DNA of 23,227 bases, taken from assembly GCA_001662655.1 (NCBI GenBank), contig KV460212.1; one strand, 5' to 3'. The notes under the pieces were generated by a model. That model was not told where the DNA came from, did no database searches, and saw only the letters and a list, made by a program, of their open reading frames with translations. Both the position numbers and the translations under genes were made by a program. This DNA is from Pseudogymnoascus verrucosus (taxonomy: Eukaryota). Positions 15,763 through 16,300 of the stretch are shown here, piece by piece (the stretch's first letter is position 1; every line of letters starts with the position of its first letter).

Positions 15763-16300
15763 ATGCCATTGACTTCCTACTCTAACGATGAATCCGACAG
15801 CTCAAGCGTTTTCGACCTCGATTCCCTTTTAGACGGTATTGACGATGACACTGATGACAAGTCGTGGCTCTTTAACGACGAAGTACAACACCCTCCAGAA
15901 CACTATCTCGCTAAAGCGGAAGAACTCGATGTGTAGCGGCTTCAGTAACGACGCTACAGCCCTAAGACCCAAGCTCAGCTCGACTGGGTGAAGTTGTAGT
16001 AGGAACCATTAAAATGTCTATTATGGCTTACGTCGACTTTCCACCGTTTCTAAGGTATTGCTTCTACATTAAGAAGGACCCAGTCTAATGCTTTCGCAAT
16101 GTCACAACAAACTTCCTCAAGGGCTTCTTAAGCTAGGTTTACGACCAACGACAAGGGAAAGGTGGGAGAAGACGGCTAGGCATCAAACATACATCAAACA
16201 TACGACGTCGTTAGAGACGTTCTGGAAGTGGTACAGCCTTGTGTACAAGCTTGAGGTTGGCGAGAAGATTGATGACATGATCATACGACAAGGGCAGGAT
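15763..16300 (+). pseudogene. Truncated, RIP-inactivated DUF3435 tyrosine-recombinase (Starship captain) gene; N-terminal ~160 codons only
   Basis: Translating through stops gives MPLTSYSNDESD...WLFNDEVQHPPEHYLAKAEELDV*RLQ*RRYSPKTQAQLDWVKL**E [probable intron] YCFYIKKDPV*CFRNVTTNFLKGFLS*VYDQRQGKGGRRRLGIKHT/TSLETFWKWYSLVYKLEVGEKIDDMIIRQGQD, then a GTGAGC donor at 16301. HPPEYY, DQRRGKGGRRRPG and SSLETFWK are motifs I recognise from DUF3435 protein N-termini. All stops fit CAG/CAA/TGG to TAG/TAA; an 11-bp duplication (16181-16202) shifts the frame. Confidence 0.85.

Follow-up and report, generated by a model that had tools for sequence, protein, structure and literature searches.

Beside a cystathionine beta-synthase (CBS) gene of Pseudogymnoascus verrucosus, an interrupted reading frame at positions 15763–16300 raises the question of whether a captain, the DUF3435 tyrosine recombinase (YR) of the Starship giant transposons, lies hidden there and whether the genes that follow it are its cargo. 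An initial annotation, made from the letters alone, had proposed both. We have examined the whole stretch of 23,227 nucleotides of contig KV460212.1 (assembly GCA_001662655.1), referred to here as the window. Our analysis indicates that a single copy of a Starship-superfamily YR element, now dead, has very probably left its 5′ third at 15259–16350; the starfish survey files its intact relatives in family 5 (Prometheus). This relic has kept the 5′ terminus, a leader of 504 bp and exons 1 and 2 (residues 1–160), and has lost everything after intron 2.

When 15763–16300 is read on the plus strand in three frames, with X at stops, the translation contains HPPEHYL, RRYSPKTQAQLDWVK, DQRQGKGGRRRLG and SLETFWKWY. 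For comparison we used four related DNA copies, the loci L001–L004 of a metagenome collection, and contigs of relatives from four runs (X2, X3, X4 and X15), aligned to 3228–23227 at 80% likeness. L001 and L002 are 76–78% identical to the window in blastn, and L001 carries an intact YR gene at 10001–12385. Six in-frame stops interrupt the relic (TAG at 15934, TAA at 15946, TAG at 15997, TAG at 16000, TAA at 16086 and TAG at 16134). In tblastn searches they align, in order, with Q, Q, Q, W, Q and W of intact relatives, and the intact copies read CAG, CAA, CAG, TGG, CAA and TGG at the same six sites in a DNA alignment (A1). An 11-bp tandem duplication with the unit CATCAAACATA was located at 16181–16203 (2.1 copies) by Tandem Repeats Finder. 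It is present in the window only in A1, being missing from L001–L003, and is missing also from contigs of X2 and X15. The motifs, the six stops and the duplication quoted in the initial annotation were thus all recovered by the frame reading and the repeat search.

The exon-1 reading (P0001) was used as a query in a search space of 5.8 billion proteins. Among 77 candidates it matches two (E 8.6e-32 and 4.1e-30), both from Pseudogymnoascus and both with PF11917; the best matches of the translation read through its stops are therefore DUF3435 proteins and not proteins without this domain. The 90% cluster of the two matches has 21 members, and among the 15 listed there are many Pseudogymnoascus strains, including P. 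destructans, with lengths from 80 to 716 amino acids (aa). P0014 (KFY97808.1), of 716 aa, has a complete DUF3435 match at residues 184–589 (Pfam, E 5.4e-153). It is listed as ‘tyr’, fam05 in tables S3/S4 of the starfish paper (Gluck-Thaler & Vogan 2024, PMC11162782), and so is the 50% representative KFY46141.1_KFY46142.1, which includes P0010; two other members of the 90% cluster have the family entry ‘n.d.’ in the same supplement. Family 5 is named Prometheus in Table 1 of that paper (PMC11162782).

Searched against the window with tblastn, P0006 and P0014 align in three collinear pieces, with summed E values of 5e-50 and 9e-51. The first piece (15763/15769–15996) has 79–81% identity, residues 1–78 of P0014 being 80.8% identical, and the second (16053–16202) has 66–72%. 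In the third piece (16094–16303) the in-frame second half is almost identical to the relatives. Beyond residue 161 neither protein has a match at E<0.35 on either strand of the window. The relic therefore corresponds to residues 1–160, all of them upstream of the Pfam domain, and the window lacks the catalytic DUF3435 part, as had been predicted. None of the three relic pieces gives a PF11917 hit in Pfam, only sub-threshold chance matches to TscT and MatP, because the relic ends at residue 160 and DUF3435 begins at residue 184 (P0014). A sequence search of the PDB with P0014 gave no match to any solved YR structure for the intact relatives. Taken together, these results uphold the view of a derelict N-terminal piece of a DUF3435 captain, with best matches that carry PF11917 and a relative, P0014, that is filed as a Starship YR of fam05.

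The splice structure of the relic is damaged as well. A 12-bp deletion after 16007 takes out the intron-1 donor GTAAGT (A1), as L001 and L002 have the stretch GTAAGTCAAC, which the window lacks. Because the donor is deleted, the frame change at 16003–16055 is not a clean intron. The 5′ leader and intron 2 contain further indels (A1). As expected earlier, the similarity ends inside the intron that begins at 16301, and the end could be placed at 16350, which is 4 nt short of the acceptor in the intact copies; the last stretch common to the window and these copies is ...TCTAATATAATT-A (A1). Exon 3 of L001 and L002 (LIKFVADQ...) has no counterpart in the window (A1). A deletion or rearrangement at 16350/16351 may have joined the YR stump to the methyltransferase-bearing DNA that follows it. 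Its six nonsense codons, the missing intron-1 donor and the frame-shifting 11-bp duplication leave the relic inactive, and it cannot mobilise anything today.

The opposite boundary was found from the points at which the copies begin to align, namely 15259 in the window, 9467 in L001, 9479 in L002 and 2086 in L003, with unlike flanks upstream. Five X2 contigs likewise have letters unlike the window before 15265. Position 15259, 504 bp upstream of the ATG, is thus the 5′ terminus of the YR family itself. The terminus reads TTACTCCATTTAACGATGTGACGGC in L003 and ATACTCT... in L001 and L002, and the window has the ATACTCT... form minus one base. The relic and the intact family copies are alike in the 5′ leader, in the two intron positions and in the start MP.TSYS.DESD (A1). 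The claim that the captain stands at the 5′ edge and points inward therefore holds, its ATG lying inside the family's 5′ terminus and facing away from the core genes. According to the starfish paper, an element boundary is usually found ≤2 kb from the captain start (PMC11162782).

At the other end of the intact copies, the similarity between L001 and L003 stops 77 bp past the stop codon, which leaves a common unit of ~3.0 kb that consists of the YR gene and its leader and has no methyltransferase nearby. This unit may represent the entire element or just a stretch common to elements with different cargo. Nine open reading frames (ORFs) in the L001 flanks gave a single match in Pfam, to an alpha/beta-hydrolase, no search having been aimed at Starship auxiliary genes. 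In the window, a 13-mer, ACGATGTGACGGC, lies at 15270–15282, 11 nt inside the 5′ end. An inverted near-copy of this terminal 13-mer is present in L001 (9724–9736, minus strand) and L002 (9730–9742, minus strand), ~245 nt inside the 5′ end, and it might be a second recombinase-binding arm. The coordinates of the relic and its surroundings are collected in Table 1.

Table 1. Features of the window around the YR relic.
Feature	Position	Strand	Evidence
tRNA gene with apparent intron, 91 nt	14396..14486	+	Rfam RF00005, 48.4 bits, E 1e-07
AT-rich flank, insertion context of the element	14750..15258		GC 0.34–0.39; RIP (repeat-induced point mutation) flags from 14751
5′ end and leader of the YR element	15259..15762	+	Start of common homology, L001–L003 and X2 contigs
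Exon 1 relic	15763..16007	+	ATG and residues 1–81, stops 15934, 15946, 15997, 16000; tblastn, A1
Intron 1 remnant	16008..16054	+	Donor gone by 12-bp deletion; A1
Exon 2 relic	16055..16300	+	Residues ~82–160, stops 16086, 16134, frame-shifting duplication 16181–16203; tblastn, Tandem Repeats Finder
Intron 2 remnant	16301..16350	+	Truncation point 16350/16351; A1, blastn
Class I S-adenosylmethionine-dependent methyltransferase, main exon, intact	17124..18056	-	Pfam Methyltransf_23/31/12/11/25
Repeat, multi-copy in relatives, ends at 18640; candidate right end or target-like site	18319..18640		

The point damage was analysed at the 998 sites that have the same letter in L001 and L002. At 158 of these the window differs, with 69 C>T or G>A changes, 34 T>C or A>G changes and 55 transversions. 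Within the coding part of the relic there are 36 C>T/G>A changes against 14 reverse transitions, and no such excess is seen in the L001 lineage (5 against 15) or the L002 lineage (10 against 4). A directional C>T/G>A bias is thus real but moderate. The 69 changes are distributed over CpA/TpG (27), CpG (24) and other contexts (18). Each of the six stops goes back to a C>T or G>A change at CpA/TpG, because the conversion of a Q or W codon into a stop requires such changes. The attribution of the damage to RIP stands in part: the two-fold C>T/G>A excess and the fit of every stop speak for it, but the CpA/TpG share of the 69 changes and the number of transversions do not. A RIP-like C-to-T process may therefore have been the source of part of the point damage.

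Judged by the usual thresholds of the RIP dinucleotide indices, 14751–17250, 18251–20500 and 20751 to the window end are flagged, and the methyltransferase ORF is unflagged. Over 15001–16250, TpA/ApT is 1.48–1.80 and (CpA+TpG)/(ApC+GpT) is 0.72–0.79. Contigs paralogous to the relic are found in X2, X15 and X4. Starships are described as vulnerable to RIP (Urquhart et al. 2023, PMC10104507), and the starfish table gives P. verrucosus eight YR genes, counted here irrespective of family, and no bounded element (PMC11162782).

The contigs of relatives allow the decay to be placed in time. The core genes are covered by all four runs at ~98–99.6%. As the intact YR copies are 76–78% like the relic, below the 80% cut-off, contig depth on the relic undercounts the copies. 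A 72-kb contig of X2 matches 15570–16519 with 18 other letters and 16598–18640 with 37 other letters, so that the relic and the methyltransferase are common to the X2 organism. The ~78 nt at 16519–16598 are present in the window and skipped in this contig, which makes them an indel in the DNA that separates the relic from the methyltransferase. Going by the contig depths, the stops at 15934 and 15946 seem to be retained in the 72-kb contig too; at both positions C stands in other contigs of the runs X2, X15 and X4. Most of the decay appears older than the divergence of the window's strain and the X2 organism, and the duplication appears younger. Among the joints listed for the four runs, no contig bridges 15258 to a downstream point. 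A joint in X3 connects 15265 to 19812 on opposite strands, with a side of 32 letters in AT-rich DNA, and could be either an inversion edge or a chance repeat match.

The genes that follow the relic had been proposed as cargo of a decayed Starship. Residues 2–312 of the annotated 312-aa protein P0166 are 100% identical to the methyltransferase exon in the window. Exact look-ups with three candidate start sites of this gene gave no match; the annotated model starts in an upstream exon. Nine homologues of this methyltransferase were found among 1468 candidates; the named strains are VKM F-3775 (80% identity) and, within the 96% cluster, VKM F-4519. In the latter, the 789-aa protein P0165 (V501_02590) has a 479-aa N-terminal part fused to the methyltransferase, and this part has no match in the window and no Pfam hit at E<0.01. 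The VKM F-3775 homologue (V491_02748) is on a contig of 9,260 bp and the CBS of that strain (V491_04339) on one of 12,911 bp, and adjacency is neither shown nor excluded. The methyltransferase is patchy, and its right-hand, upstream neighbourhood differs between strains. The methyltransferase is unproven as cargo, as no insertion boundary or empty site shows it and the L001/L003 unit is without it. The Hrip1-like ORF (20201–20611, minus strand), a label of the initial annotation, has no Pfam family at E<0.01, and an exact look-up of it gave no match. It lies past the repeat edges at 18640 and 19818 and is spanned by an X3 contig (20134–21870, 56 other letters) and an X4 contig (19818–21589, 85 other letters), which makes its proposed role as cargo unlikely. 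Contigs of X3, X15 and X4 are missing on 17235–17901 and contigs of X2 on 20570–21236, and we do not take this as absence.

The strongest competitor to a truncated element is the view that 15259 to 18640–18648 is one decayed Starship-type element with both ends kept, in which the methyltransferase is cargo or a replacement of the catalytic part, and which could formerly have relied on intact captains for transposition in trans. We regard this as unlikely, although several signals at its right edge speak for it. The 13-mer of the 5′ end recurs inverted at 18623–18635, 11/13 identical and 5 nt inside the 18640 edge. A degenerate pattern, derived from these two sites, has them as its only two exact matches in the window and has none in 100 shuffles. 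The edge itself is defined independently, since four loose ends of X15 lie there, record 27 of X4 stops there, and the 72-kb contig of X2 ceases to match at 18640 although another 69 kb of it follow. In one X2 contig 18640 + CT + 15265 are joined, which rebuilds the canonical 5′ end ATACTCTATTTAACG of L001 and L002. Each of the two edges also agrees, by our own comparison, with (T/A)TAC(N7)A, the target form of Hephaestus (PMC10104507). The patchiness of the methyltransferase, with only two other named strains, would fit as well. In its most specific form, to which we give rather little credence, 15259–18640 would be a complete 3.4-kb non-autonomous derivative of the Prometheus family, its ends being inverted ATG(T/A)GACGGC arms by (T/A)TAC(N7)A and the methyltransferase standing in place of the catalytic part; the X2 joint would then be a site formed by tandem units or circularisation. 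The related copies do not bear this out. No sequence like 18319–18640 and no inverted motif is found ≤10 kb downstream of L001 or in L002–L004, none of the four loci has a methyltransferase, and the likeness of L001 and L003 ends shortly after the stop codon. Beyond the 13-mer the two ends have no significant similarity, since scores as high as those observed arise in 12 of 200 and 55 of 1000 shuffles, and by our arithmetic a 13-mer match with ≤2 mismatches is expected ~0.5 times per window. Moreover, 18640 is also the edge from GC-normal to AT-rich DNA, at which alignments at 80% likeness may simply stop, and the fusion in VKM F-4519 suggests that a neighbour gene extends over the proposed edge. 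The insertion of a YR element at a target-like site would explain the X2 joint just as well. The candidate bounded unit of ~3.4 kb, with one gene, falls below the 15-kb minimum of starfish (PMC11162782).

Two further views find less room. A large decayed Starship could run from 15259 past 18640 and include the Hrip1-like gene as cargo; apart from two genes, the DNA from 14750 to the window end is RIP-flagged and repeat-rich, and the captain relic is the first coding feature and points inward. We consider it very improbable, since X2, the sole run with a contig of relic and methyltransferase, matches only up to 18640 and the two genes do not travel together in the contigs aligned here. Unrelated multi-copy repeats also intervene (18641–19817), high-copy units follow from 21900 on, and with a right end outside the window no boundary is visible. 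It is even harder to believe that the small ORF over the relic, or the N-terminal fragment, is a domesticated and expressed small gene. A stop-to-stop ORF of 89 aa does exist at 16073–16342, with the first M at residue 6, and gives an ATG-started ORF of 84 aa (16088–16342). However, this ORF is chimeric, as had been noticed from the start: its first ~42 residues are out of frame with respect to the family protein and its last part reads into intron 2. Six stops interrupt the in-frame part upstream, and no Pfam family rises above threshold.

Several points also weigh against our preferred reading of a dead 5′ third of a YR element. L001 and L002, as metagenome copies 76–78% identical to the window, are imperfect stand-ins for the ancestor, and ordinary age or differences between subfamilies account for much of the divergence. 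The 24 of the 69 changes in CpG, beside the 27 in CpA/TpG, and the third of the differences that are transversions hold RIP to a moderate part. The placement of the relic in its family draws wholly on the N-terminal extension that it has in common with DUF3435 proteins. The stops in the X2 contig were read from contig depths and not seen directly. Finally, a gene without proof of being cargo may be cargo all the same: the methyltransferase occurs patchily among named strains, the relic faces it, and past it there is an inverted terminal motif.

Over residues 1–160 the relic is ~80% identical to KFY97808.1, and it resembles the Prometheus YRs of the starfish paper also in its AT-rich insertion site, Prometheus insertion sites being reported there as mostly AT-rich and often within transposons (PMC11162782). 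In contrast to an intact Prometheus YR, it keeps 160 of 716 residues, has no DUF3435 and no catalytic residues, and has many stops and indels. A parallel within the genus is the starfish-predicted Starship psesp.9_s08975 of Pseudogymnoascus sp. 05NY08 (fam05, navis514), in which the captain is also a remnant, of 87 bp (118563–118649). That element differs in having both boundaries set against another genome (93842–122416, ~28.6 kb) and in carrying an NLR gene and others (PMC11162782). Wallaby likewise has a pseudogenised captain with many premature stops, still in place at the element edge; its boundaries and cargo are curated, whereas here only the 5′ edge is secure (PMC11162782).

Hephaestus, with HhpA, has a DUF3435 YR at its 5′ end as in the family described here, and its termini have target-like sequence (PMC10104507). 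The 5′ ends of our family, TTACTCCATTTA in L003 and ATACTCTATTTA in L001 and L002, fit TTAC(N7)A or are one base off, a likeness that is our own comparison of a 5-base pattern. Unlike the present family 5 relic, Hephaestus belongs to family 2, is experimentally mobile and carries cargo (PMC10104507). The compact ~3.0-kb unit of L001 and L003, with the YR gene alone, is Crypton-like in size. However, starfish ranks Starship YRs and Cryptons as separate, equal groups (PMC11162782), the relatives here are DUF3435 proteins filed as Starship, and the end of the L001–L003 similarity may reflect differing cargo and not the element end.

The relic adjoins the CBS gene and begins ~770 bp downstream of the tRNA gene. 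The window's CBS protein has no mismatch over 534 residues to the P. verrucosus protein and 4–17 mismatches to those of seven other strains, and its ORF matches a Pseudogymnoascus cluster of 35 members. The tRNA gene, for which ARAGORN made no tRNA call at 14396–14486, is the last conserved feature ahead of the repeat-rich block, and over its bin the contig depth is higher in each of the four runs, which is what a multi-copy tRNA would give. Pieces of the AT-rich flank that follows resemble repeats of the window (14974–15044 and 18683–18752, 79%; 15100–15160 and 21902–21962, 72%), and contigs of X2, X3 and X4 cover 14460–15053 at ~90%.

Further repeats are distributed over the window. Upstream of the methyltransferase, 18201–18293 holds two tandem 45-nt units, 78% alike, at a spacing of 48 nt. 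The AT-rich block at 18641–19817 (GC ~0.29–0.37) has strong RIP-like indices and contains an inverted repeat with 70-nt arms (18777–18846 and 19113–19182, 90%) as well as pieces similar to 14974–15044 and 21901–22046; the relatives' contigs resume at 19818. From 21900 to 23227 there are nested inverted and direct repeats, with a 174-nt arm pair at 86%, units of ~497 bp and perfect 46-nt arms at 22052–22097 and 22506–22551. These look like elements of the miniature inverted-repeat transposable element (MITE) type, and the summed contig depth over them reaches 288 and 425 in relatives, against ~40–55 for single-copy DNA. Between the prolidase-like and CBS genes, 11751–12500 is RIP-like (TpA/ApT 1.6–1.8, composite ~0.8–0.9) at a normal GC of ~0.47–0.49.

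The relic is an ordinary decayed member of a catalogued family. According to the starfish paper, 21 Pseudogymnoascus genomes have 5–33 YRs each and one bounded element in all, and across fungi 10,212 solo YRs stand against 559 bounded elements, elements <15 kb having been discarded (PMC11162782). As solo YRs far outnumber bounded elements, one more dead copy is to be expected, and if our reading is right little changes. Should the less favoured view of a unit with both ends prove true, it would show how small a cargo-carrying Starship derivative can be (3.4 kb, both ends and a captured methyltransferase), and as a non-autonomous derivative it would be a small gene-carrying element movable in trans by intact captains of the family. 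As a dead copy, the relic explains the odd chimeric 84-aa ORF and shows where, beside a tRNA gene, an accessory stretch that is repeat-rich and RIP-like sets in. It also provides the family's exact 5′ terminus in this genus, with which element boundaries overlooked by automatic tools could be curated.

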